This document shows, in pieces, positions 902 to 54,833 of a stretch of 59,495 nucleotides of DNA. A model generated the notes under the pieces. It was given only the letters and a program-made list of their open reading frames with translations. It made no database searches and had not been told where the DNA came from. A program made the position numbers and the translations under genes. The stretch covers positions 1 through 59,495 of the IMG/VR virus record IMGVR_UViG_3300002514_000031; one strand, given 5' to 3'. Source of the DNA: a virus (taxonomy: Duplodnaviria > Caudoviricetes). Position 1 is the first letter of the stretch; each line of letters begins with the position of its first letter.

Positions 902-996
902 AATCAAAAAATTTTTGCTTTTTTCTTTTTGAGAAACGCTTTTGATCTTTTATGATAAAAGGTAGAAAGTGAATATCAAAAGCATAGAAGCATCCG

Positions 997-1035
997 AGCA
1001 CGGAGCCTCCTACAAAAGGTTCCGTGCTTTTTTTT
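997..1035 (+). terminator. Intrinsic terminator immediately upstream of the head genes
   Basis: AGCACGGAGCCT-cctacaaa-AGGTTCCGTGCT stem followed by a T run. Confidence 0.75.
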
Positions 1036-11731: not shown

Positions 11732-12742
11732 ATGGCATTTACACTGAAATATATTGATGTGAAAATGGGCAAGAGCAGCCCGCATGGTCAAGATCGCACG
11801 TACAAATTAGAGTATCAAGTGACCTCCGATGCAGCGACAACTTTAGGCGCGGCTGCGGATTATCTGGTGAGCAATCTTCCGTCCACGCTGACTTCCTACG
11901 GCGATGCAAATGCGAAGCTGGAAGATTTCTCCTGTAACGCTTTAGAAGAAGGATCCGTGTTGTTGAAGTTCGGCGGCACCGCCAACTATGAAAAGAAAAG
12001 ATCCTCTCAATCAAATGAAGATGAAAATTCTTCAGATGAAGTCCAGATCCGTTTCGGGCAAAACTCATATGAGAAAGTCAAATACTCTTCTTTTGACGCA
12101 AACAAAAAGAAAGTCGCTGTTTTGAATTCTGCTGGTGCTCGGTTTGGAGAACCTTTGTTGCAGGTTGAAAAACGATTACAAATCACGGTGTCCAAAACCT
12201 ACAACAAGTCCGTTATCAATCCAGCGAGTTTTCAACGGTATTTCGATTCAGTCAATCTCAATGCAATCCGCATCGCAGACATTCCCATTATCCAAAGGGG
12301 TGGGCATATGAAATCCATTTCACCAGTAGCACAACGAATCACTGGCGATGACTATGACTGGCGAATCACTTATGAGATTGAAGTCAGAGGAAACGGCGAG
12401 ACGTATGACCGAGAGGTTCTGGATCAGGGTTTCTACTTTTTGGAAGAAGTCAACGGATATGAAAACGCCGCAGCGATCAAAGCCAATCCCAATGGGTTTG
12501 TTTTGAGACTCAAAAAGGATGGAGGTTCAACTGGTGTTTCTTATTATCGAAAAGTACATGCCAAGGTCTTGAATGAGGATGGCGAAGAAGAAACCTCGAA
12601 GGAACCCGTGTTGTTGGATGGTAAGGGCGGGTTGTTGTTCGACACAACGCCAGGAAATGAAAAGTACATCGTGTATAGGTCTCATCCCGAAAAGAATTGG
12701 AGCGTGTTGGATCTTCCCAAAACCGTAGCGGAGGGATTGTGA
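11732..12742 (+). CDS. Tail tip/distal tail protein (putative)
   Basis: Directly after tape measure; NSAG..F, LDQGF and PVLLDGKG blocks. Confidence 0.55.
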   Translation: MAFTLKYIDVKMGKSSPHGQDRTYKLEYQVTSDAATTLGAAADYLVSNLPSTLTSYGDANAKLEDFSCNALEEGSVLLKFGGTANYEKKRSSQSNEDENSSDEVQIRFGQNSYEKVKYSSFDANKKKVAVLNSAGARFGEPLLQVEKRLQITVSKTYNKSVINPASFQRYFDSVNLNAIRIADIPIIQRGGHMKSISPVAQRITGDDYDWRITYEIEVRGNGETYDREVLDQGFYFLEEVNGYENAAAIKANPNGFVLRLKKDGGSTGVSYYRKVHAKVLNEDGEEETSKEPVLLDGKGGLLFDTTPGNEKYIVYRSHPEKNWSVLDLPKTVAEGL

Positions 12743-33615: not shown

Positions 33616-35037
33616 TTATAATCCTTTTATGATGTCTTCAAGTATCCGCTCTCTGAAATCGGTGTCTTTGTATTTCCAAACCAATGAACCTTCATCGGTT
33701 CCCGCCACGTGCATTCCTCTTGACCAGCTGTGGGAGTAGGCACTTTGGTTCCCTTCAGTATTCCAAAGTGCCTTCACATCCCTGTACAACGCTGCACTCA
33801 AAAAGCCTCCGTGTTTGTTGACGTAGTTGACGAAGTTTTTCCATGATGTCGGTTTGCCTTTTCGTTTTTGAATATAACGAGCTGCAGTGACAGTGCATCC
33901 ATAATTGAATCCGCCTCGGAACCAATCACCAACCTCGCAACATACCATCTGATTATTGTCGGGAGCATTTCCCATATCGAACGTGGAACAAGAGAAACCT
34001 CGCTCACGAAACATCTGCATGAACTTTCCCAATAGCAAACTTCCCGCTGCTTGCGAGTCGCACCCGAGGAGAAACAATCTGTCCCAATCGTATCCCATGT
34101 TATGAAAACTTTGCCTGATGCCAGGATTCTTTGCGGTGTATGAATAGGTGTCGAAGGTTATATGACGACAACCGATTTCCCAAACATCTTTCATGTATTG
34201 TTCCACGTCCTCTTTTTTGTCGTTCAGAAAAACCAAGAACGGTTCAATGCGAGGCACCACACGCACGCCAGCTTTCACGAGTTTCTCCATTGCACGCAAT
34301 CGTCTGCGATACGAAGGTGCGCCAGGTTCCAGTTCTTTCAGGAACTCATTGTCAGAAGAAATCAAAGTCATATGAACAGCTGCTCGTCCTGCGTTACGTG
34401 CGAGTGCCTCCACATAATCGTCTCGACCAACCAAAGCACTTTTGGTGTTTATCATTACAGGATAAGAAATGTCAGCGAGATACTCCAGAAGTTCCAAGCT
34501 GATTCCTTTTTCTTTTTCATCATCGAGAAAGTCCTCAAAGCGGATCCCGAACCTCATTGGAATTTCCAAGCCTATGGCTTTGGCTACGGCGGCACCCGAA
34601 GCGAAGGAGTGAGGATCCTTTCCACGGTTCTTCATAAGCACATCCAGTTCCTTTTTATACATGGTGGCATTACAATGACGGAACCCCATTGTTTTGGAAT
34701 TGTCGAAGAAGGCCGTGTACAAACTCGCTCGAAAGGCATTGGCGTAGCAATACTTGCAACCGAACGGGCAGAGCAATCCATCCCACGTATCAATATTCAG
34801 AGGCATCGGACACGCCTGAGCACGGCACGATACTTCTACGAAACTGTTCAGCTCTTCGAGGTTCAGGAGACGTTCCTGAGGGATCCATTTACTCTCGGTG
34901 AGTTTGAATTCTTGGTATTGAGTTTTGCGTCCTTTCTCTTTGACGGGTTGGATCTTTCCTTTCTCGTCAACGAGTTTGCGAGTGCGTGGGATCACGTTCG
35001 CAACTATGGATCTCAGTTCATAATAATCCATGGTCAC
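33616..35037 (-). CDS. Radical SAM enzyme, spore photoproduct lyase-like
   Basis: CPFGCKYC motif, INTKS, LEPGAPS..RRL and RIEPF. Confidence 0.88.
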   Translation of the reverse strand: MTMDYYELRSIVANVIPRTRKLVDEKGKIQPVKEKGRKTQYQEFKLTESKWIPQERLLNLEELNSFVEVSCRAQACPMPLNIDTWDGLLCPFGCKYCYANAFRASLYTAFFDNSKTMGFRHCNATMYKKELDVLMKNRGKDPHSFASGAAVAKAIGLEIPMRFGIRFEDFLDDEKEKGISLELLEYLADISYPVMINTKSALVGRDDYVEALARNAGRAAVHMTLISSDNEFLKELEPGAPSYRRRLRAMEKLVKAGVRVVPRIEPFLVFLNDKKEDVEQYMKDVWEIGCRHITFDTYSYTAKNPGIRQSFHNMGYDWDRLFLLGCDSQAAGSLLLGKFMQMFRERGFSCSTFDMGNAPDNNQMVCCEVGDWFRGGFNYGCTVTAARYIQKRKGKPTSWKNFVNYVNKHGGFLSAALYRDVKALWNTEGNQSAYSHSWSRGMHVAGTDEGSLVWKYKDTDFRERILEDIIKGL

Positions 35038-35537
35038 CCTTCCATCATCTTTTTTACTTCGGGCAATTCTTTGTTATTGTTCAGAACAGCTTTTGTGAAA
35101 GGCTTGACGTGATCTTTCAATTGGTATCCCGTTCGGTGACAGTCTTTCATAAGGGTGTCCAATTTGGATGCGGTCTTTTCATAGAAGTTTGGATCACCTT
35201 TTCCGAGTTTTGGAACGAGGCCAAAACCTTTTTTTGATTTCTTCCCCTCTTTCTGTTCGGCAATCATATCCAGCAGGATCATCCCAGCTGCGTAGTTGCT
35301 TTTTGCCGCCAGTAGTGTGTGGGCAACAGTTGAGTCCTTGTCATCTTCTCGTTTTATCACGCAGTGGTTTTTGTTTTTGTAGATGTGTCCGAACTTTGTT
35401 CTGTCTTCCACGTTTGAAAAGACATGCGTGTTCTTCCTATTGACTTTCAGATCGCCAAAAGGCAAAAAGCCATCCACGCCTTCAAACACAAGGGATTCCA
35501 CACGTGTCGCTTTCATACTATATTTTGATCCTGACAT
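35034..35537 (-). CDS. Hypothetical protein
   Basis: First gene after promoter motif; AAGGAG RBS. Confidence 0.7.
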   Translation of the reverse strand: MSGSKYSMKATRVESLVFEGVDGFLPFGDLKVNRKNTHVFSNVEDRTKFGHIYKNKNHCVIKREDDKDSTVAHTLLAAKSNYAAGMILLDMIAEQKEGKKSKKGFGLVPKLGKGDPNFYEKTASKLDTLMKDCHRTGYQLKDHVKPFTKAVLNNNKELPEVKKMMEG

Positions 35538-35555
35538 TTTTATTTCTCCTTCTGT

Positions 35556-35567
35556 CTTATTATAGAT
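35556..35567 (-). promoter_or_regulatory. Phage promoter motif ATCTATAATAAG
   Basis: Exact 12-mer followed by AAGGAG and ATG 35537. Confidence 0.8.
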
Positions 35568-35591
35568 TGATGATATCGAAACAATCTGACT

Positions 35592-36509
35592 TTATGGAAT
35601 AAGGTGCTCAAAACCTTCCGAACCTATCGCATCAAATGTTCCGTCCAGTATTTTCCTGATGTTCTCTTCTATGACATCACGTTTGTTTTTCGTAATGGAT
35701 GTCGCATGCCATCTTTTTTCTTTCCAACCCACGAAGGGTTCTGTTTTCGGTAGTTCTTTTATTTTGTACGTGTTGTCAAATAGTTGTCTGATGTTTCCGT
35801 TGTCTAATGCGCATAGCAAATAATCTCGGCACCAGTGGATCGCATTCAAAACTTCTTCTGGATTCACTGAGGCGGAGAAATGACGAAACTCTATTGTGTC
35901 TGTTTGTAGAAGTTGGCGGAGACTGATTGCCGCCCGAGGTTGAGCGTGCCATAGTGGGCTCCCTTTTTTGCTTTGCGGAACTTCTAACTCAAAGAACCTT
36001 TTGATTGATTTGGCTTGTAGTTGTTTTTGTACTCGGTTTATTGGAATGGAAGTCCAGTGACTCATTCTCATCCACCGCTGACGTTTCACCGCTTCTTTGT
36101 GTTCTCGGGCAGATGGGAAATCGAAGCGAGTGGGAATGGGCAACGGATCCACATGATGATAAATGTCGGTGTTTTCCGATATGAATTTTTGGATCTTTTT
36201 CAGAACGTCCAAGTTGTCTTTCAATCCTGGCATGCGAATGTGAACATGCAAACCCGCTCGATGAGTCGCCACCGCTCTCGGGTGCTTCTTCAAAAACTTT
36301 TGAAGGAGTTTGATTTGTTCCTCGGGTGTTTCCGTTGCGGGTGTATTGATTTCTCCTCCAAATGGATAGCTCTTCAGGGAAGGATCCGTTGCGATCCCGT
36401 TACTGTTACAAGCGTTTGGTTCTGGATCTCTTCCGAAACCTTCCCAACCTTTCCGAGTATCCCAATCACCGAACTCGTGCTCACAACCGTATGTCCATTT
36501 CATATCCAT
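35592..36509 (-). CDS. Amidoligase (glutamine synthetase-like COOH-NH2 ligase)
   Basis: TYGCEHEF, GEINTP, GLHVHI and TIEFR motifs. Confidence 0.82.
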   Translation of the reverse strand: MDMKWTYGCEHEFGDWDTRKGWEGFGRDPEPNACNSNGIATDPSLKSYPFGGEINTPATETPEEQIKLLQKFLKKHPRAVATHRAGLHVHIRMPGLKDNLDVLKKIQKFISENTDIYHHVDPLPIPTRFDFPSAREHKEAVKRQRWMRMSHWTSIPINRVQKQLQAKSIKRFFELEVPQSKKGSPLWHAQPRAAISLRQLLQTDTIEFRHFSASVNPEEVLNAIHWCRDYLLCALDNGNIRQLFDNTYKIKELPKTEPFVGWKEKRWHATSITKNKRDVIEENIRKILDGTFDAIGSEGFEHLIP

Positions 36510-37360
36510 TCTCCTTCATGGCCTATATTCCAAAACAAAATCGGTTCTTCAATTGGTCGGTGCGTTCTCATAAGCCACTGCCACGCCTTGCGGTCATAGA
36601 AAGCATGACACGGAAAAGGGCAAGGCTCCTCGGATCGTTCGGTGTACTCCCATCCCAAGTCAACCAATTTCAAATTCTTTCTTTTAATTCCAGTGATCCC
36701 GCCTTCCACCTTTTTGGCTTTGAAAAGGATCTTCTTTTTTTTCTGAATGACGTTTCCTGTCCGACACATAATGCCGAACGCCTTGCAGCCTTCGGGAAGT
36801 TTCCTCAACAGTCCAGCAAAGATTGTTCCCGATCCTACGCAACACACCACCGTCCGAAGAGTGATCTTTTTCAGAGTCCTTTGAAACTCTCTAGCGGTTT
36901 CGTGAATCGTCTGTTCCAAAGGCAATCCCAAGTCCAGCATCTCCGCTTCTTTTCCAAACTCGTTCCGCAATCTTTTTCTACAGATATGATAATTCACTCT
37001 TGCCATTCCCGCTTCCACTTTGCGGATCGTGGCGTTGCACTTCTTCCAGTGCTTCCGATGGATCTTCAGAACCTCATGCGGTTCTTTGTATTGAGGATCG
37101 TATATGACGGCCTGTAAGCCAAGTTGTTGGCACGCCCATGCAACTCCCCATCCAGCCATGCTGATGCTCGTCTCGGTGTATCCTACCACGCGCAATCCCT
37201 TTTCCTTCCGCTCGGATAAGTAAGTATACACGCCTCTCATTTTGCTGAATGGCGGGGATCCTTCTGGCCCGCAGAGATCTTCCCGCTTGACGTGGATGGT
37301 TCTGCCTCCTGCTTCGTAGGTTTCAATGGGGGTGTTTTTTCTCATCGTCAGTTTCGTCAT
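36500..37360 (-). CDS. PLP-dependent enzyme, fold type II (ACC deaminase/cysteine synthase-like)
   Basis: VKREDL...SKMRG (Schiff-base Lys), VGSGT loop, YDRKAW and LFWNIG. Confidence 0.85.
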   Translation of the reverse strand: MTKLTMRKNTPIETYEAGGRTIHVKREDLCGPEGSPPFSKMRGVYTYLSERKEKGLRVVGYTETSISMAGWGVAWACQQLGLQAVIYDPQYKEPHEVLKIHRKHWKKCNATIRKVEAGMARVNYHICRKRLRNEFGKEAEMLDLGLPLEQTIHETAREFQRTLKKITLRTVVCCVGSGTIFAGLLRKLPEGCKAFGIMCRTGNVIQKKKKILFKAKKVEGGITGIKRKNLKLVDLGWEYTERSEEPCPFPCHAFYDRKAWQWLMRTHRPIEEPILFWNIGHEGEWI

Positions 37361-42370: not shown

Positions 42371-43723
42371 TCATTTCTCCTCTAATGAATGGATCAGAGC
42401 ATCATACAAATTGAAATCGTTCTTGACGTTCTTCCCGTCCATCGTGTCAGCAATTACGTTTTGTTTTTTCTGAATCAACTCGCATAGCATTTCTTCTATC
42501 GTTCCTTTGGCTACGATGTAGGTGATCTGGGCAGCGTTCTTTTGTCCGATACGGTGGATGCGATCTTCGGCCTGAGTATGGTTCGCTGGAACCCAATCGA
42601 GTTCCGCAAACAGCACGTTACTCGATGCGGTGAGGGTGATACCCGTTCCTGCGGCAATGACGTTACCAAAAAACAAACGGATCTTTTTTTGGTGCTGGAA
42701 GGAGTTGACTGCTTTCTGTTTGTTGAGCGGTGAGGTACTTCCATCCAACACCACCGAGTTCCTCGGATACAAGTCATGAAGTCCACGCACAACTTTCTTA
42801 TGAACGCCGAACACCACCAGCTTTTCATCCGTCTCTTCTAAGAAGCTGTCAATCCATTTTTTGACGGCCTCCATTTTCAAGTCCATCGCTTTCCTTTTCA
42901 AGTATCCCATTTTGTTCAACACCAGAGCCTTCTTCACTCGGTGAACTTTGGAGGGTTTGTTTTCGTGTAGCCAGCGGAGGAAGTTGTCACGCACTTTTTT
43001 GTACTCGGTCAACTTCACCGATATGGGAACCACGGTGCGGATCTTGTCAGGGAGTTCTTTCAGAACGTCCTTTTTGCGTCTGCGTATCAACATGTGTCGA
43101 TTGAGTCTGGTGTGAAGTTCTTCGAGGTGTTCCGCTCCTTTGTATATCCACTTGCCGTTCTTGAGTTCGGGTTTGCAATAACGGGCAGCGTAGGCAAGGA
43201 AGTCATTGAATACTTCGGGATACAGCAGGTGAATCATCGGCCAAAGTTCGGCAGGACAATTCAACATTGGCGTTCCCGAGATCGCAATGATATGTTTGAA
43301 TCGAGTTGCTAATGCTAGCAGCATCTGCGTTCGTTGAGCGGATCGGTTCTTTGCGTAATGACACTCATCAATGATGAGGGTTTTGAACCCGCCCGTCCGC
43401 AGCTTCTTTCCCCACGCATTCAGGATCTTGTAATTGATAATCGTGATGGGGAGATCAATTTTGATATTTTCTTTTTTGGCGGTCATCCCGTTCAACACTC
43501 GACTGAGCATGCCCGCTTTGGTGGAGGCTTCTTTTTCCCATACCCATTTCAAATGAGCAGGGCACACCACCAAAGCAGGCAAGGCAATCTCGGGATTCTC
43601 TTTCACCCACCATAACGCTTGAAGGGTTTTCCCGAGTCCCATTTCATCGGCCAGCAACGCTCGTCCTTTGAAGTGGGAAATCCATCGCACTCCTTTCTTT
43701 TGATATTTGAAAAGGATGCTCAT
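42371..43723 (-). CDS. SNF2-family helicase (HARP-like)
   Basis: ADEMGLGKT, DECH, SGTP and QAEDRIHRIGQ motifs. Confidence 0.93.
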   Translation of the reverse strand: MSILFKYQKKGVRWISHFKGRALLADEMGLGKTLQALWWVKENPEIALPALVVCPAHLKWVWEKEASTKAGMLSRVLNGMTAKKENIKIDLPITIINYKILNAWGKKLRTGGFKTLIIDECHYAKNRSAQRTQMLLALATRFKHIIAISGTPMLNCPAELWPMIHLLYPEVFNDFLAYAARYCKPELKNGKWIYKGAEHLEELHTRLNRHMLIRRRKKDVLKELPDKIRTVVPISVKLTEYKKVRDNFLRWLHENKPSKVHRVKKALVLNKMGYLKRKAMDLKMEAVKKWIDSFLEETDEKLVVFGVHKKVVRGLHDLYPRNSVVLDGSTSPLNKQKAVNSFQHQKKIRLFFGNVIAAGTGITLTASSNVLFAELDWVPANHTQAEDRIHRIGQKNAAQITYIVAKGTIEEMLCELIQKKQNVIADTMDGKNVKNDFNLYDALIHSLEEK

Positions 43724-44259
43724 TGAAGCACTTCCCGTATTTCATCAACAACAGCTCGGAAGCGATGCGCATTCCATCCTTCTTTTTTGATCGTCTCTTC
43801 TCGCACGGAAGATCTGATGTTTGCAAAAGATCCTCCTTTGCTATCTATGATTGTTTGGATTTCATTTGGCGTATTCAAAACCAAATCCAAAACCGTTTGA
43901 GTGTCTTCACTCACGGCATCATAGACATGCGTCCAAAACTCTCTCGGTTCTTCTGATGCTATTGGATCCAGTTCTCCTCCTCGTTGGAATCGGTTACAAT
44001 ACCGTGCCGCTCTCCGCCACGCATCAAACAAATGCGTTCGAACGTAACTGACCAGAAGAGTAGTGAAGGCGTTTCCATAAGAAGGGTCAAAGGCTTTGTA
44101 TGCTTTTACAAAAGCCAAACACGCTTCCGAGTATAGTTCATCCAGAGATAGAAGGGAGCCGTGTCGCTCGATGAATCGGTGACACATGTCGTGTAGAAGT
44201 TGTTTGACATCTCGGTACGTTTGGTCAAAAGCATCCGTGGTAATGGTTGTACATATCAT
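43720..44259 (-). CDS. Sigma-70 region 2-like phage sigma factor
   Basis: DELYSEACLAFVKAYKAFDPSYGNAFTT pattern. Confidence 0.7.
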   Translation of the reverse strand: MICTTITTDAFDQTYRDVKQLLHDMCHRFIERHGSLLSLDELYSEACLAFVKAYKAFDPSYGNAFTTLLVSYVRTHLFDAWRRAARYCNRFQRGGELDPIASEEPREFWTHVYDAVSEDTQTVLDLVLNTPNEIQTIIDSKGGSFANIRSSVREETIKKEGWNAHRFRAVVDEIREVLQ

Positions 44260-50754: not shown

Positions 50755-51089
50755 TCTCCTTCTAAGTAGTTTCAGTTTTCATTTCAATTTCAAACTTGAC
50801 CGTGAGGCGTTGCTTCCTCATAAAAGTCTTTCACTCGGTCAAAGCGTTTCAGCACGCTGGAGAAGTCTGAAGAGTGTAACCTTGTTTCGCCGATCAGCTA
50901 GTGAGTTGCTATCCTCAGAGGCTCGCTATAAATCCGCACTTACAATTTCAAACTTCTCATGGGTCTGACCGTTTCTCATCTCAACCTTCTCTCCCGAGAG
51001 GCCTTGGCTTTCGCATGATTCGAAACCTGCTTTCGCTGCCATCCGCATTTCTCTATTCACTTTTAATAACCTCTTAACTTCTACACTAT

Positions 51090-51118
51090 ATAGTATCGAC
51101 TGTTTCGATATTCGTCAA
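51090..51118 (-). promoter_or_regulatory. Host sigma70-type early promoter
   Basis: TTGACG-17 nt-TACTAT on the minus strand with A-rich sequence upstream; overlaps palindrome TATCGA-N5-TCGATA. Confidence 0.75.
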
Positions 51119-51257
51119 GCGTAAAATCCGAAAAAACATGCACTTTTTTTTTGGGCTCCTTTTTCCCTTCCTTTTTAGTGTTATTTGTTAGTGTTATGGC
51201 TCTTTTGTTTTTTGGATCCTGAAAAGTTTTTTTGAAATTTTTTGTTTTTCTTTTCGC

Positions 51258-51269
51258 ATCTATAATAAG
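51258..51269 (+). promoter_or_regulatory. Phage promoter motif ATCTATAATAAG upstream of a non-coding region
   Basis: Exact 12-mer; no RBS/ATG follows. Confidence 0.75.
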
Positions 51270-51610
51270 ACAGGAAGAAAACCGCAGAAAGTCCTGCCGT
51301 CAGTTTCAGGAAAGACCGAGGTCAAAAACTGATACCAAACGCTTCACGGGTCAGTAGGTGAAGAGACGTAACGAAACGCAACGTGCCCTATTGCGTTCCA
51401 AAACATTTTTGTTTTGCACTCTGCGAACTTCGAGGAGTGGCTGGACGATCCCAGCGAAATGGTTTGACGAAGTTCCGCTTGAAAGCCTCACTCAAAATTG
51501 ATTGAAGTTTTTGAAAGTGTCCGAATTGCTCGGGCACTTTCTGCCTACTCAACGAGTAGAGAAGAAAGAACCTTCAAGAGCAATAGCGATTGAAGAAGGA
51601 GTTCTTTTTT
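51270..51610 (+). ncRNA. Candidate structured non-coding RNA
   Basis: Promoter at the 5' end, about ten consecutive stems, T-rich end, no ORF in the track. Confidence 0.55.
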
Positions 51611-51625
51611 GTTTTGGTTTTTTCA

Positions 51626-51637
51626 ATCTATAATAAG
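51626..51637 (+). promoter_or_regulatory. Phage promoter motif ATCTATAATAAG
   Basis: Exact 12-mer upstream of AAGGAG and ATG 51678. Confidence 0.8.
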
Positions 51638-51677
51638 ACGGAAGCAAAAAGATTTTAACATTCAGAAGGAGACTACA

Positions 51678-52163
51678 ATGCCGAAGAAAAGCAAATTGGA
51701 AACGATGAAAAACGATCTCACGAAAATCCGTGATGCTCGCATCGACAAAATTGAACGGTGGTACGAAGAGACGTTGATTGCTCTCGATGAGATGTACGGT
51801 TCACCCGTGTTTGCGGTTCCTGTAGTGATGAACATTCATCCTACGAAAAAGAAGAAACGAAAAAGAAGAAGAGGAACCAAAGACACCCGCAAGTATCTCA
51901 GCAAAACTTCCTACGACATCATCACCGAGTATATGACGATGATCAACGAAGGAGAGCTATTCAGCGTGCTGGATATTCGGGAATGGATCCTGAAAAATTT
52001 CAAAGGGTACAACGTCACGAACGATTGTCACTTGGCGAACATTCCGAATGTTCTGAGGAAACTCAGAAAGAGAGGAGCCTTGGATTTTCAGACCGTGGGA
52101 GGTCATGAGGGAAGAGGCCTGAACGCCGAACACATTCTGACGAAAGCACCTGAAGTAAAATGA
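51678..52163 (+). CDS. Hypothetical protein, basic patch plus possible winged helix
   Basis: KKKKRKRRR patch; AAGGAG RBS. Confidence 0.65.
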   Translation: MPKKSKLETMKNDLTKIRDARIDKIERWYEETLIALDEMYGSPVFAVPVVMNIHPTKKKKRKRRRGTKDTRKYLSKTSYDIITEYMTMINEGELFSVLDIREWILKNFKGYNVTNDCHLANIPNVLRKLRKRGALDFQTVGGHEGRGLNAEHILTKAPEVK

Positions 52164-52650: not shown

Positions 52651-53355
52651 ATGGCCAAGAAAACTCTTGTGAAGAAAGCGAAGAAGGCGGCAAGAACGAT
52701 CCCAACCGTCACCAAGTGCACGGTGAAAGAGGAACGCTTTTGCAAAGAATACATCAAACACGGTAACGGATCCAAATCCCATCGTGACGCTGGCTATGGC
52801 GGCAACAATAATCACGTCCGTGCTCATGAGCTTCTCCAAAAGACGCATATCCAAAAGAGGATAGCTGAACTCAATAAGGATCGGGAGATCCGAACTCAAG
52901 TCACCGCTGACCGAACTATTCGAGAACATGCCCGAATTGCTTTTGCCAATCACGATGAGATAGCGAAGGCAGCCAGCGATGCTTCGAGCGTGGCAGACTT
53001 TTTCAACCGTTTGAGTACAGACGATTGCGCAGCGGTGGAATCCGCTCGAATGGTTACGTTGGAAAAAAGGAAACCCGCCAAGCCAGCTCGGTATGATAAG
53101 GATGGTGAGGAGATCCGTCCAGAAGTTCCCGAAGTTCCCGAAGTCACTGAACTCCGATACGTTCTTCATGATAAACAAAAAGCTCTCGATGCCCTCGACA
53201 AAATCCAAGGACTTCTTATCATTCGTCATTCTCATTCGGACGATACGCCCAAATTGAATACGGTACGTGTAGAAGATTTGGGGTTGGGAACGGAAGCGAA
53301 GAAAGAGTTGTTGGAGAGGATCCGAGAAGCCCAGAAGGAGGAGAAGGAAGAATGA
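52651..53355 (+). CDS. terS: Terminase small subunit
   Basis: KEERFCKEY..GN....AGY, ELL...I..RI, RIAFA and HDKQKALDAL motifs. Confidence 0.88.
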   Translation: MAKKTLVKKAKKAARTIPTVTKCTVKEERFCKEYIKHGNGSKSHRDAGYGGNNNHVRAHELLQKTHIQKRIAELNKDREIRTQVTADRTIREHARIAFANHDEIAKAASDASSVADFFNRLSTDDCAAVESARMVTLEKRKPAKPARYDKDGEEIRPEVPEVPEVTELRYVLHDKQKALDALDKIQGLLIIRHSHSDDTPKLNTVRVEDLGLGTEAKKELLERIREAQKEEKEE

Positions 53356-54833
53356 CACCCGCATTACTCGAAAAAGAGATTGCTGAAGATATTCTATTGG
53401 AAGAGCATGACGTGGTAGCGAGTATCTGCCGTGATAGCTTTTGGTTTTTCGTTCAAGAGTTCTGGGCAGAAATTATTGATGAACCTCTCATTGAGAATTG
53501 GCACATGCCCTTGTTATGCGAAGAACTTCAGAAGCTGGCGGAGCGGGTTTTCAAGCGTTTGCCTCTTCGGCAGGATCTTCTAATCAACATCGCGCCAGGC
53601 ACTAGCAAAAGCACCATCACCTCGGTTATGCTTCCTGCGTGGTGTTGGATCCGAGCACCGTGGGTTCAGATTATCTGCGGCAGTTACGGGCATGACCTCG
53701 CATTGGATCTCTCTACGAAGGGAAGAGCGATTGTGGAAAGCGAGAAATACAAAGCGTGTTTTCCCGAAGTCAAATTGAGTAGCACTCAAAACGCAAAACA
53801 ATTCTATCAGACCACCGCTGGAGGGTGGCGGTTCGCTACGTCCACGGGCGGAGCGGTTACGGGAAGGCACGGGCATTTGATAATCATAGATGATCCAGTG
53901 GATCCGCAGGGAGCGGAGAGTTTGGCAGAGAACGAAGCGGCACGCCTCTGGCTGACCGATGTTATACCAAAAAGAAAAGTAGACCAATCCAGAACCCCCA
54001 CGGTGATGATAATGCAAAGACTTCACCGAGACGATCCGAGTGCCCTTTGGCAAGACCAAATGAAAAGAGGAAGGCACGTGAAGCATATCTGCCTCCCTGC
54101 GGAAGTAAACGAGTTCATCAAACCCGTCTCTTTGGCTGCACGTTACGTGGATGGCCTTTTGGATCCCGTTCGGTTGAGTAGAATGGTATTGGAAAATCAA
54201 TGGAGAGTTTCCGAGCATTCTTATGAGGCTCAATATCTTCAGAACCCAATCCCACGGGGAGGAGGAATGTTCAAGACGGACAACATCGAGATCCTACCCA
54301 TGGACAAGTATCCTGAAGGGTTCAAGCTCGTTCGGTATTGGGACAAAGCGGGTACACGAGAAGGCGGAGCATATACGGCGGGAGTGCTTATGGGAGCAAG
54401 AGGAAAGAACCGCATGAAGGAGTTTGTGATATTAGACGTAGTGAGAGGGCAGTGGGAAGCGTATACTCGTGAAAAGATAATCCGACAAACGGCGGAAGCG
54501 GATGGAAGGCGGGTGATTGTTCGAGTAGAACAAGAACCTGGAAGTGGCGGGAAAGAATCCGCTGAGAACACGATCCGAAACCTCGCTGGCTTCCGAGTCG
54601 CAGCGGATCTCGTTGGTGCTAGCAGCGGGAACAAAGTTCAACGAGCGGATCCGCTGGCGAGTCAAGTCAATGGCGGAGCGGTGAAGATGAGAAGAGCGGA
54701 TTGGAACAGTGCGTATCTCGATGAGATGCGATCCTTCCGAGAACAAAGCAAATACAAAGACCAAATAGACGCATCCACAGGAGCTTTTTCTCTCCTCGTG
54801 GGCAGACAGAAATACATAGGAGCATTGAGATAA
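53352..54833 (+). CDS. terL: Terminase large subunit
   Basis: APGTSKS, TGRHGHLIIIDDP, IMQRLH, YWDKA, EQEPG and DQIDA motifs. Confidence 0.95.
   Translation: MTPALLEKEIAEDILLEEHDVVASICRDSFWFFVQEFWAEIIDEPLIENWHMPLLCEELQKLAERVFKRLPLRQDLLINIAPGTSKSTITSVMLPAWCWIRAPWVQIICGSYGHDLALDLSTKGRAIVESEKYKACFPEVKLSSTQNAKQFYQTTAGGWRFATSTGGAVTGRHGHLIIIDDPVDPQGAESLAENEAARLWLTDVIPKRKVDQSRTPTVMIMQRLHRDDPSALWQDQMKRGRHVKHICLPAEVNEFIKPVSLAARYVDGLLDPVRLSRMVLENQWRVSEHSYEAQYLQNPIPRGGGMFKTDNIEILPMDKYPEGFKLVRYWDKAGTREGGAYTAGVLMGARGKNRMKEFVILDVVRGQWEAYTREKIIRQTAEADGRRVIVRVEQEPGSGGKESAENTIRNLAGFRVAADLVGASSGNKVQRADPLASQVNGGAVKMRRADWNSAYLDEMRSFREQSKYKDQIDASTGAFSLLVGRQKYIGALR

Follow-up and report, generated by a model that had tools for sequence, protein, structure and literature searches.

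What does a phage promoter transcribe when no ribosome-binding site and start codon follow it? This question is raised by one locus of the window, by which we mean the whole stretch of 59,495 nt analysed here, an IMG/VR record (IMGVR_UViG_3300002514_000031) of an uncultured marine phage. The locus lies where early genes give way to late ones, and a sequence-only reading had proposed that it encodes a promoter-driven, densely structured, novel phage ncRNA. By the covariation described below, the region is a conserved structured RNA, and our best reading is that it represents a previously uncatalogued family. On balance, and with modest confidence, we favor the view that a highly structured, non-coding RNA of about 340 nt is encoded by a self-contained gene at 51259-51615 on the plus strand, in which promoter, RNA, and terminator form one unit and the product acts in trans.

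A promoter motif and a hairpin with a T run frame the region

The phage promoter motif, TCTATAATAAGAC, has 10 matches (at most 2 mismatches) in the whole window against 0.64 expected, a number reached by 0 of 100 shuffles; the motif noticed by the sequence-only reading is thus real. Seven of the 10 copies are intergenic and correctly oriented. Three matches with 2 mismatches each, at 12538, 14926, and 35173, fall within coding sequence and were left out of the promoter count. Six intergenic copies (27406-, 35554-, 39095-, 44275-, 51627+, and 58882+) have a GGAG-type ribosome-binding site and an ATG 14-48 nt 3′ of the motif. The copy at 51259 is, as had been claimed, the sole good intergenic one without a ribosome-binding site and ATG downstream. 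The elements around the region are as follows.

51061-51258, no strand: T-rich spacer that separates the minus-strand arm (last start at about 51042-51060) from the plus-strand arm at the divergent junction
51259-51271, plus strand: promoter P1, an exact copy of TCTATAATAAGAC, with the -10 element TATAAT at 51261-51266
51562-51615, plus strand: 3′ hairpin and T run TTTTTTGTTTT (T run at 51605-51615), with a fold of -16.8 kcal/mol
51627-51639, plus strand: promoter P2, a second exact copy of the motif, upstream of the first plus-strand ORF (ATG at 51678)

Judging from the spacing, the RNA would start near 51272-51274. Promoter P1 was not called by a simple sigma-70 scan because it has no canonical -35 element, and motif and promoter scans found no minus-strand copy of the promoter motif inside the RNA. 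At the other end, the final stem with a T run that had been noted earlier is present at 51562-51615, and we read it as a putative intrinsic terminator of the RNA; a simple terminator scan missed it because its loop exceeds the limit of the scan. Promoter P2 at 51627, itself outside the RNA, probably drives the first plus-strand ORF and the terS/terL operon. The T-rich spacer, which carries the direct repeat TAGTGTTAT at 51176-51184 and 51189-51197, is poorly conserved against the relative L004 (see below) and is context outside the RNA.

The RNA is predicted to fold into two pseudoknots and a series of hairpins

Two H-type pseudoknots are followed by six further hairpins and then by the hairpin with the T run. 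The parts between promoter P1 and that last hairpin are listed here; covarying pairs are counted over six family sequences from three lineages.

51272-51291, plus strand: 5′ leader, short and poorly conserved in two alignments
51292-51333, plus strand: pseudoknot 1 (H-type), from covariation and coordinate reading in three lineages
51292-51296 with 51307-51311, plus strand: S1 of pseudoknot 1 (TCCTG/CAGGA in the window, TCCCG/CGGGA in L004, CCCC/GGGG in L009)
51299-51306 with 51326-51333, plus strand: helix P1 of pseudoknot 1; 5 of 8 pairs covary
51314-51316 with 51321-51323, plus strand: P1a, a small hairpin in the connecting loop of pseudoknot 1; 2 of 3 pairs covary
51342-51363, plus strand: hairpin P2, 6 bp; 5 of 6 pairs covary; conserved 10-nt loop G-S-G-K-C-R-GUAG
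51364-51374, plus strand: conserved single-stranded joiner RGACGUAA; GACGTAA is invariant in 6 of 6 sequences
51375-51397, plus strand: hairpin P3, 7 bp; 7 of 7 pairs covary in the six sequences; conserved loop motif UGCCC/GGCCC
51399-51416, plus strand: hairpin P4, 7 bp; 5 of 7 pairs covary, and all are paired in three lineages when read by coordinates
51417-51475, plus strand: pseudoknot 2, made of P5, an 8-bp loop pairing, and the hairpin P6 and joiner between them
51417-51422 with 51433-51439, plus strand: P5 of pseudoknot 2, with G51435 bulged, from covariation over six sequences
51425-51432 with 51468-51475, plus strand: 8-bp pairing of the P5 loop, an exact complementarity (GAACTTCG/CGAAGTTC) in the window
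51440-51444 with 51451-51455, plus strand: hairpin P6, from covariation over six sequences
51456-51467, plus strand: conserved joiner AAUGGU, within pseudoknot 2
51476-51513, plus strand: linker of variable length with the conserved motif GC-N-CACU, 12 nt longer by an insertion in the window than in L004, and no secure helix
51514-51540, plus strand: hairpin P7, 11 bp; 6 of 11 pairs covary; an internal U-G wobble is common to the window and L004
51545-51559, plus strand: hairpin P8, 6 bp; 3 of 6 pairs covary; longer in the L009 lineage

Both pseudoknots are alike in design, each with a stem of 5-6 bp, a 2-nt spacer, a second stem of 8 bp, and a hairpin in the long loop. S1, with its 4-5 bp, is the least secure helix of the fold, and the P1a pairs of the window are G-C, A-U, and C-G. 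Three further pairings were tried and rejected: the helix GGTTT/AAGCC (51461-51465 with 51483-51487), suggested by RNAalifold on two sequences, had only 73% of its cells paired over six sequences, and two pairings considered by eye, between the P2 and P3 loops and between a second CACTC and the 3′ arm of P5, were dropped because they are not kept in L009.

Every stem listed by the sequence-only reading was found in its place and also occurs in the minimum-free-energy fold of the plus strand. This fold has -109.2 kcal/mol (z = -3.45), and 0 of 100 shuffles folded as well, the outcome of the shuffled-control comparison that had been proposed. The corresponding z-scores are -2.93 for L004 and -7.78 for L009. 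The minus strand of the window folds nearly equally well (z = -3.03); hence thermodynamics alone report dense inverted repeats and do not pick the strand. The strand is indicated by the helices, which contain five G-U cells and no A-C cell, and by the promoter and the T run, both on the plus strand.

Base pairing is kept while the sequence changes in three lineages

The relative L004, whose terL is 77% identical, keeps 72 of the 72 proposed pairs. In a MAFFT alignment of the window and L004, which was not fitted to any structure, 144 of 144 cells are paired and 21 pairs have changed on both sides. None of 500 shuffles reached the observed values, and no slid control had more than 1 such changed pair.

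A covariance model, R1, was built with no sequences other than those of the window and L004. It matched the window, and so did it five of the 17 loci searched besides (L004, L005, L007-L013, L015, L016, and L018-L023). Apart from L004, these were L008, L009, L010, and L013, found at 73-76 bits (E about 1e-22); they form one further lineage, with terL 51-54% identical and no blastn similarity. Over the six sequences, 37 of 64 nested pairs show changes on both sides and 96.8% of 376 cells are paired, in an alignment that was fitted to the covariance model and leans towards structure. Here the slid controls gave at most 4, and the observed value was again reached by 0 of 500 shuffles. The family is small, as four of its six sequences are nearly identical and leave three effective lineages. 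Read by coordinates, all eleven helices, both pseudoknots included, are fully canonical in the three lineages.

One case is the 8-bp pairing of pseudoknot 2, which is perfect in each lineage and has been rewritten from one to the next (GAACTTCG/CGAAGTTC, GATCTCTG/CAGAGATC, and GTGGCTCA/TGAGCCAC). The complementarity between a loop and a downstream segment, put forward earlier as a possible pseudoknot or switch, therefore proved exact and conserved, and it has a counterpart in the like pseudoknot at the 5′ end.

The RNA is non-coding and matches no Rfam family

Stops occur in every frame in the three lineages, and there is no conserved reading frame. By tblastx, the similarity between the window and L004 is spread across all frames, and the comparison of the window with L009 gave only two chance-level matches (E of 0.03 and 0.11). 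An Rfam search, the check suggested with the original proposal, matched no family in the three lineages: Rfam 15 (4227 models) gave 0 matches at the gathering threshold in the whole window, and the 8, 4, and 4 weak matches at E ≤ 10 in the three lineages share no family between lineages. At the same cutoff the pRNA covariance model and the GOLLD and ROOL models had no match in any of the three lineages, and the tRNA neighborhood of GOLLD and ROOL is also absent. ARAGORN found 0 tRNA or tmRNA genes in the window, and for tmRNA there is neither a tRNA-like domain nor a conserved tag frame. Taken together, the covariation in three lineages, the lack of a conserved ORF, and the lack of an Rfam match support the candidate novel phage ncRNA.

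A full-text literature search found no description of the RNA. PMC10690425 predicts 8,495 candidate structured RNAs from IMG/VR, many with terminators, and the main-text passages compared here describe no such RNA. Since the window and L004 both come from IMG/VR, the source of those candidates, the RNA could be among them, in the supplementary alignments and models of that study.

The RNA stands ahead of the packaging module but is missing from some relatives

In all three lineages the RNA lies upstream of, and co-oriented with, the terS-terL-portal module, while the left-hand neighbors are unrelated. The earlier placement upstream of terS is exact for the L009 lineage only; in the window, two small ORFs stand between the RNA and terS. 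For the small ORFs adjoining the RNA in the window, L004, and L009, Pfam and PHROGs gave no family, and in the three lineages there is no conserved protein partner gene adjoining the RNA. The 161-aa downstream ORF had no relatives in IMG/VR. Besides a normal terS and terL, the window phage has genes for a DNA polymerase of family A, a primase, and a DnaB-like helicase.

A promoter between the RNA and the first late ORF is found in three of three lineages, at 51627 in the window, as TGGTATAAT near 4173 in L004, and at 2490-2518 in L009. In L009 the terS ATG lies 6 nt past the -10 element of this promoter, so that terS is apparently leaderless and the RNA is no translational leader there. The candidate promoter for the RNA itself in L009 is weak (9/12) and lies about 70 nt further upstream. 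As to the 3′ end, L004 also has a hairpin followed by a T run (TTTTTTATT). The L009 lineage keeps its 3′ hairpin through a compensatory change between sub-variants and has no directly adjoining T run, which makes release of the RNA doubtful there. We also asked whether either arm of the 3′ hairpin could pair with the core as an antiterminator; 0 of 6 tests in the three lineages beat shuffled arms (|z| < 1.4). The mutually exclusive folds of a terminator/antiterminator riboswitch or attenuator were thus not found in any of the three lineages, nor was a regulated gene without its own promoter past the terminator, as a promoter is present there in all three.

The RNA is absent, despite sufficient upstream sequence, from L019, L021, L023, and L012, and from L022, which is apparently the same contig as L012 in another collection; the contigs of L005, L007, L011, L015, L018, and L020 end too soon upstream. 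R1 had no match in the whole records behind L005, L015, L021, and L023. L019 (terL 53% identical) has a like divergent junction, also with a promoter (TCTATAAT), but this junction measures only about 280 nt and does not contain the RNA; with the filters off, R1 found there only junk of at most 9.3 bits, inside terS. The unit in the window has its own promoter and its own hairpin with T run, and it is missing from the equivalent junction of L019; these points suggest an accessory insert of the ‘moron’ kind, a moron being an additional unit of a phage genome that is complete in itself.

By blastn against 50,697 GenBank phage records, the RNA region of the window and that of L009 had no match, and tblastn with the terL of each found nothing above 39% identity, so that there is no cultured relative and no host is identified. 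DNA-pattern scans of IMG/VR returned only the L004 contig and a match in L016, which was rejected by the covariance model as a chance match, and a collection of bacterial and archaeal genomes gave neither a pattern match nor a terL relative. In four DNA sequencing runs we saw short, low-depth contigs identical to the window, none of them spanning most of the RNA, and we rest no conclusion on them. As for antisense targets elsewhere in the window, the longest complementary match is 13 nt and none looked meaningful; there are 27 11-mer matches against a mean of 9.7 (maximum 23) in mononucleotide shuffles, a count inflated by overlapping matches.

Trans-acting RNA or cis-acting element

The kept position and orientation ahead of the packaging/head module would suit a role in cis, or one linked to the module, at least as well as they suit an RNA acting freely in trans, and cis antitermination of the late operon is the main rival. 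Here the nascent RNA from promoter P1 would modify the polymerase, or would set the read-through of 51562-51615 and of later terminators, and transcripts started at promoter P1 would reach the distal late genes. We think such a leader unlikely. Promoter, RNA, hairpin, and terS/terL keep their order on one strand in three lineages despite the differing other side, as a leader would have it, but the separate promoter ahead of the first late ORF in each lineage and the leaderless terS of L009 argue against it. Read-through is likely in the L009 lineage, whose hairpin has no adjoining T run, and it could act at a strong terminator-like site within the plus-strand arm (996-1029, a 13-bp stem and T8); against this stand the absence of antiterminator complementarity in the six tests and the L019 junction, which works without the RNA. 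The core of about 260 nt with two pseudoknots is also far larger than put (about 70 nt) or EAR (about 120 nt), and what it has in common with put-like processive antitermination is only the layout of promoter, RNA, terminator, and operon. We regard it as improbable that the RNA assists head assembly or DNA packaging as a cofactor, or that it assembles with itself into a complex of RNA only, held together in dimers or rings by intermolecular 8-nt pairing. The RNA does travel with the terS-terL-portal-head module and not with replication genes, the two 8-nt segments that complement each other have changed in step from lineage to lineage, and there is a precedent in ROOL and GOLLD, where, in the part of PMC12286853 drawn on here, loop-joiner ‘tertiary’ pairings found by covariation proved to be intermolecular bridges. 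However, the geometry fits an ordinary intramolecular H-type pseudoknot, a design that pseudoknot 1 repeats; no lineage matches the pRNA, ROOL, or GOLLD models; and the phage has a normal terS and terL. Moreover, L019 with its related terL has no RNA, so the RNA is not essential to such a packaging machine.

There are two further explanations. The region might be a replication element, either a pre-primer or origin transcript or a set of hairpins acting as folded single-stranded DNA at a junction origin. The replication pre-primer ColE1 RNA II runs into the origin unterminated and stays hybridized, under the control of an antisense RNA, and T7 and T4 have origin transcripts. The position at the strand-bias switch and cumulative GC skew minimum, beside a T-rich tract with a short direct repeat, and the replication genes of the phage (family A polymerase, DnaB-like helicase, primase) would suit this role, which we nonetheless rate as highly improbable. 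The skew switch coincides with the gene-direction switch and hence carries little information, the hairpin with T run that ends the RNA in the window and L004 argues against a pre-primer of the RNA II type and its persistent RNA-DNA hybrid, and the RNA is linked to the packaging module, with unrelated replication-side neighbors in the L009 lineage and no RNA in L019. Least credible to us is a double-stranded DNA site (pac, cos, or an operator array) whose inverted repeats are bound by protein, with no functional RNA. Although pac sites often lie near terS, as this region does, and both window strands fold about equally well, the repeat sequences change freely while their pairing is kept (37 of 64 pairs), which is the opposite of how protein-binding sites behave. 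Crossing pairings and G-U pairs are kept (five G-U cells, no A-C cell), and the promoter and T-run hairpin frame the unit on one strand. The possibility that the region works as a DNA site, raised with the original proposal as a way to refute it, is thus unlikely in its purely double-stranded form.

We therefore return to the trans-acting RNA as the preferred reading. In it, the host RNA polymerase would transcribe the RNA from about 51272, and the RNA would fold during its synthesis, be released at the terminator, and act in trans as a compact particle. Its unpaired motifs that do not vary (GUAG in the P2 loop, the joiner GACGUAA, GCCC in the P3 loop, and the joiner AAUGGU) may form a contact surface, and the partner could be a protein, another RNA, or further copies of the same RNA.

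Significance and comparison with known RNAs

To our knowledge, the translation apparatus aside, few RNAs of more than about 200 nt have conserved pseudoknotted folds, and those that do are often ribozymes, riboswitch-like sensors, or self-assembling particles. The window RNA is compact and well delimited, its covariation is unusually clean, and it bears on what phages use large structured RNAs for. As a short stand-alone unit it can be synthesized and its structure, oligomer state, self-cleavage, and termination examined directly, and a seed alignment and model are now available for finding more members. There is a slim chance that it belongs to a so far undescribed class of phage ribonucleic machines linked to the head/packaging module, in which intermolecular 8-nt pairing would build dimers, rings, or cages, either of RNA only, as in ROOL and GOLLD, or as a pRNA-like cofactor of the terS/terL motor; a ribozyme would fall under the same slim chance.

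In phi29 pRNA, complementary loops join neighboring molecules into a ring on the portal. The window RNA resembles it as a phage RNA gene with two co-changing complementary loop segments, genetically close to packaging. It differs in being about twice as long and in having segments of 8 nt instead of 4, and the phage differs from phi29 in encoding terS and terL, in a family A polymerase that is not of the phi29 type, and in having a relative (L019) without the RNA. With tmRNA it has in common a size of about 350 nt and a series of H-type pseudoknots, but not the tRNA-like domain (ARAGORN), an Rfam tmRNA match, or a conserved tag frame.

HK022 put RNAs and Bacillus EAR are RNA-mediated processive antitermination elements. 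The layout of promoter, RNA, terminator, and late or packaging genes is that of HK022 putL/putR, Bacillus EAR, and the lambda PR′-6S RNA-tR′ arrangement, and EAR also contains a pseudoknot. Unlike put, EAR, and lambda 6S, however, the window RNA is several times larger, has two pseudoknots, and is followed by a second promoter past the terminator in three lineages.

GOLLD and ROOL are large, ornate RNAs found in phages and prophages. Like them, as far as they are covered in the part of PMC12286853 used here, the window RNA is phage-encoded and large for an ncRNA of the bacterial world, with many helices and covarying loop-joiner pairings. GOLLD is often longer than 800 nt according to the same part of PMC12286853, against about 340 nt here. 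Unlike GOLLD and ROOL, the window RNA has no tRNA genes in the window and leaves their Rfam models unmatched, and it stands instead at the head of a packaging operon.

The candidate RNA lies between two divergent gene arms

The virus record is linear (59,495 bp, estimated completeness 82%), and its DNA is present in sequencing runs labelled marine or seawater metagenomes. Among cultured phages, the best relatives of its terL are <39% identical, as are those of the terL of L009, a contig from a related phage. The genes are split into two arms, and the candidate RNA (51259-51615, +) sits inside the 617-bp gap between them (51061-51677).

Gene arms of the window
~19.9 kb to 51.06 kb, minus strand: MoxR-type AAA ATPase, DUF2201 protein, sigma-70-region-2 protein, SNF2 helicase, primase, DnaB-like helicase; further genes: PLP enzyme, amidoligase, radical-SAM enzyme, UDG plus exonuclease, family A DNA polymerase, clamp loader
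From 51,678, plus strand: terS (52651-53355) and terL (53352-54833)

Past terL, the plus-strand arm carries ORFs matching putative portal/head-region genes of another related contig (L010). On the minus strand, the phage encodes a 179-aa protein with sigma-70 region 2 (43720-44259). A cluster at 33616-37360 (-), beside the replication genes, encodes a radical-SAM enzyme, an amidoligase-2 protein and a PLP-dependent enzyme, possibly a pathway for DNA modification or for a small molecule.

A promoter copy and a 3′ hairpin frame the structured region

Allowing ≤2 mismatches, the promoter motif TCTATAATAAGAC has 10 matches in the window, where 0.64 would be expected. Of the ten, seven are intergenic copies directed at genes; they are of one type (TCTATAATAAGRN, canonical -35 absent) and serve both arms.

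Promoter copies
27406, 35554, 39095 and 44275, minus strand
51259, 51627 and 58882, plus strand

Six of these precede a GGAG-type ribosome-binding site and an ATG, the latter 14-48 nt past the motif. As the sequence-only reading had noticed, the copy at 51259 is the sole one with neither. Beyond the structured region, at 51627, a second exact copy serves the first plus-strand ORF. For four of the seven intergenic copies, the ATG is just 14-16 nt past the motif, which would put the Shine-Dalgarno only a few bases from the inferred start of the transcript. The 39095 and 51627 copies have 11 additional identical bases in common (GGAAGCAAAAA).

The final stem with a T run was found as described: a hairpin at 51562-51610 (-16.8 kcal/mol) leads into TTTTTTGTTTT. 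A simple terminator scan made no call for it because its loop is large. The strongest intrinsic-terminator-like site of the plus-strand arm lies elsewhere, at 996-1029 (+), between two late ORFs (13-bp stem with 7 G-C pairs, then T8), with a promoter-like TTGAGA-16-TATGAT upstream at 929-956. The T-rich spacer ahead of the RNA promoter contains a direct repeat, TAGTGTTAT (51176-51184 and 51189-51197, 13-nt period), possibly an operator or a repeat of the origin type; it has no conserved counterpart in the related contig L004.

Compensatory changes maintain the fold in three lineages

All the stems listed by the sequence-only reading are present in the sequence and in the minimum-free-energy fold. 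The plus strand folds at -109.2 kcal/mol (z = -3.45), and none of 100 dinucleotide shuffles is as stable. The minus strand is nearly as stable (z = -3.03); energy alone thus reflects dense inverted repeats and does not pick the strand. The corresponding z-scores are -2.93 in L004 and -7.78 in L009.

Searching through terL, we found L004 (an IMG/VR contig of 49.8 kb, terL 77% identical), where 350 nt of the divergent junction are clearly homologous. RNAalifold, given a plain MAFFT alignment of the two, predicted 73 pairs, 18 of them compensatory. We curated this to a 72-pair structure by removing a doubtful long-range helix and adding the loop/downstream pairing proposed earlier. All 144 cells are paired, and both sides have changed in 21 pairs. 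Sliding the structure by 1-3 columns left at most one doubly changed pair and 36-46% pairing, and 0 of 500 column shuffles matched the observed values.

From the two sequences we built a covariance model, which matched four metagenome contigs (L008, L009, L010 and L013) at 73-76 bits (E ~1e-22), always on the terL strand and 738-1090 nt upstream of terL. These contigs had been collected for terL alone (51-54% identity), and blastn detected no similarity to the window RNA in them. Being near-identical, they count as one lineage, giving three known lineages. With all six sequences, pairing over 64 nested pairs reaches 96.8%, and 37 of these pairs are doubly changed; slid controls gave at most 4 doubly changed pairs, and 0 of 500 shuffles reached the observed value. 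This alignment is biased towards the structure, having been fitted to the model; we therefore also checked each helix by its coordinates in the three lineages and found all pairs canonical. The five further contigs supply the homologues upstream of terS/terL and the covariation that had been proposed as a check. The RNAalifold helix GGTTT/AAGCC was dropped, as it fails in the third lineage (73% paired over the six sequences).

The RNA contains two pseudoknots of common design

Elements of the RNA, 5′ to 3′ (all plus strand)
Leader: 20 nt at the 5′ end
Pseudoknot 1: S1 51292-96/51307-11; P1 51299-306/51326-33; small hairpin P1a in the long loop
P2: conserved 10-nt loop, 3′ end GUAG
Joiner GACGUAA: between P2 and P3, invariant
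P3: GCCC loop
P4: after P3
Pseudoknot 2: P5 51417-22/51433-39; P5 loop 51425-32 pairs with 51468-75
P6 and conserved joiner AAUGGU: between the strands of the pseudoknot 2 pairing
Variable linker, P7 (11 bp), P8, 3′ hairpin: in that order after pseudoknot 2

In both pseudoknots, a first stem of 5-6 bp is followed by a spacer of 2 nt and a second stem of 8 bp, the latter abutting the first stem's return strand; the long loop carries a hairpin. What had been noted as a possible pseudoknot is the 8-bp pairing of pseudoknot 2, which is perfect and wholly rewritten in each lineage (GAACTTCG/CGAAGTTC, GATCTCTG/CAGAGATC, GTGGCTCA/TGAGCCAC). S1 also changes in step (TCCTG/CAGGA, TCCCG/CGGGA, CCCC/GGGG); being short, it appears less secure than that pairing. 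In L009, a candidate GTCACA-17-TATAGT promoter (2066-2127 region), if used, would add ~70 nt to the 5′ end of that lineage's RNA, with two small hairpins that have no counterpart in the window or L004.

The helices include 5 G-U cells and 0 A-C cells; one is an internal U-G in P7 common to two lineages. Read on the opposite strand, all five would be mismatches, and the promoter and T run likewise point to the plus strand. Stops interrupt all six frames in all three lineages. Performing tblastx, we obtained similar scores in every frame for window/L004 and merely two chance-level matches for window/L009 (E 0.03 and 0.11). These patterns argue for a plus-strand RNA rather than a small protein gene, in agreement with the non-coding reading.

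The RNA travels with the packaging and head module

The three lineages have a common layout of divergent junction, promoter, RNA, 3′ hairpin, second promoter and same-strand late genes. The proposed position ahead of terS holds in all three, although not immediately so in the window, where two small ORFs intervene; L004 has other small ORFs there and L009 none. Shared genes are terS and terL, together with more ORFs past terL, the latter putative portal and head genes. On the far side of the RNA, L009 encodes a protein of 256 aa and, from a DPPY motif read by eye, a putative Dam-like methyltransferase; neither has a homologue in the window. With one side shared and the other unrelated, the RNA seems to travel with the packaging and head module.

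Another contig about as distant (L019, terL 53% identical) has the same divergent junction and a TCTATAAT promoter, and no RNA was found in its ~280-nt gap; the RNA is therefore dispensable for that kind of phage. Direct repeats (CCAGCAAAAATCT x2) lie in this junction (880-960), upstream of a TTTTCTATAAT promoter for terS.

A short ORF of the window (MAAKA...SADL, ~38 aa, 50926-51042, -) recurs in conserved form in L004, with a 33-nt in-frame indel. It is followed by a 170-nt non-coding stretch (50755-50925, - strand intergenic) with conserved blocks (e.g. AGTGTAACCTTGT) and long hairpins ahead of the next minus-strand gene. An early-operon attenuator or a further small RNA may reside here.

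Proposed role and relation to known RNAs

Rfam 15 gave 0 matches across the whole window at gathering thresholds, consistent with the earlier failure to place the RNA in a known family, and at E≤10 no family recurred across the three lineages. ARAGORN found no tRNA or tmRNA in the window. The full-text literature searched yielded no description of the RNA; a 2023 survey predicted 8,495 candidate structured RNAs from IMG/VR (PMC10690425), and the RNA may be among them. What is shown is a conserved, pseudoknotted, non-coding plus-strand fold, with a putative promoter copy on one side and a T-run hairpin on the other. The initial observation is confirmed, and its interpretation as a candidate phage non-coding RNA is supported; that a selected RNA structure exists we regard as highly probable. 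Judged by these comparisons, the RNA represents a new phage RNA family, large and with two pseudoknots; its known members are few, and its comparative support is unusually clean.

We lean towards a reading in which transcription would start at ~51272, the RNA would fold co-transcriptionally and be released at ~51612, and its invariant unpaired motifs would let it act in trans on a protein, an RNA or copies of itself. No long antisense target was found elsewhere in the window.

The main rival, a cis-acting antitermination element of the late operon, would account for the conserved position and orientation and for the weak terminator in L009, but promoters intervene between the RNA and the late genes, L019 lacks the RNA, and its size also speaks against this role, which we consider rather unlikely. 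The 3′ hairpin arms showed complementarity to the core no higher than shuffled in the three lineages (0/6 tests), giving no sign of a terminator/antiterminator switch. In L009, the terS ATG lies 6 nt past the -10 of the second promoter (TTGGCT-17-TATAAT, 2490-2527 region), and a Shine-Dalgarno is absent; terS of this lineage thus appears leaderless, and the RNA would not be a translational leader. A double-stranded DNA site is hardly credible: pairing is held while sequence changes, contrary to a protein-binding DNA site, and the crossing pairings are conserved too. A replication primer or origin element is very improbable. A cofactor role in packaging or assembly, or self-assembly of the RNA, is another reading, which we think improbable; the link to the packaging module would fit, and so would the precedent of ROOL and GOLLD, whose covarying loop-joiner pairings turned out to be intermolecular (PMC12286853).
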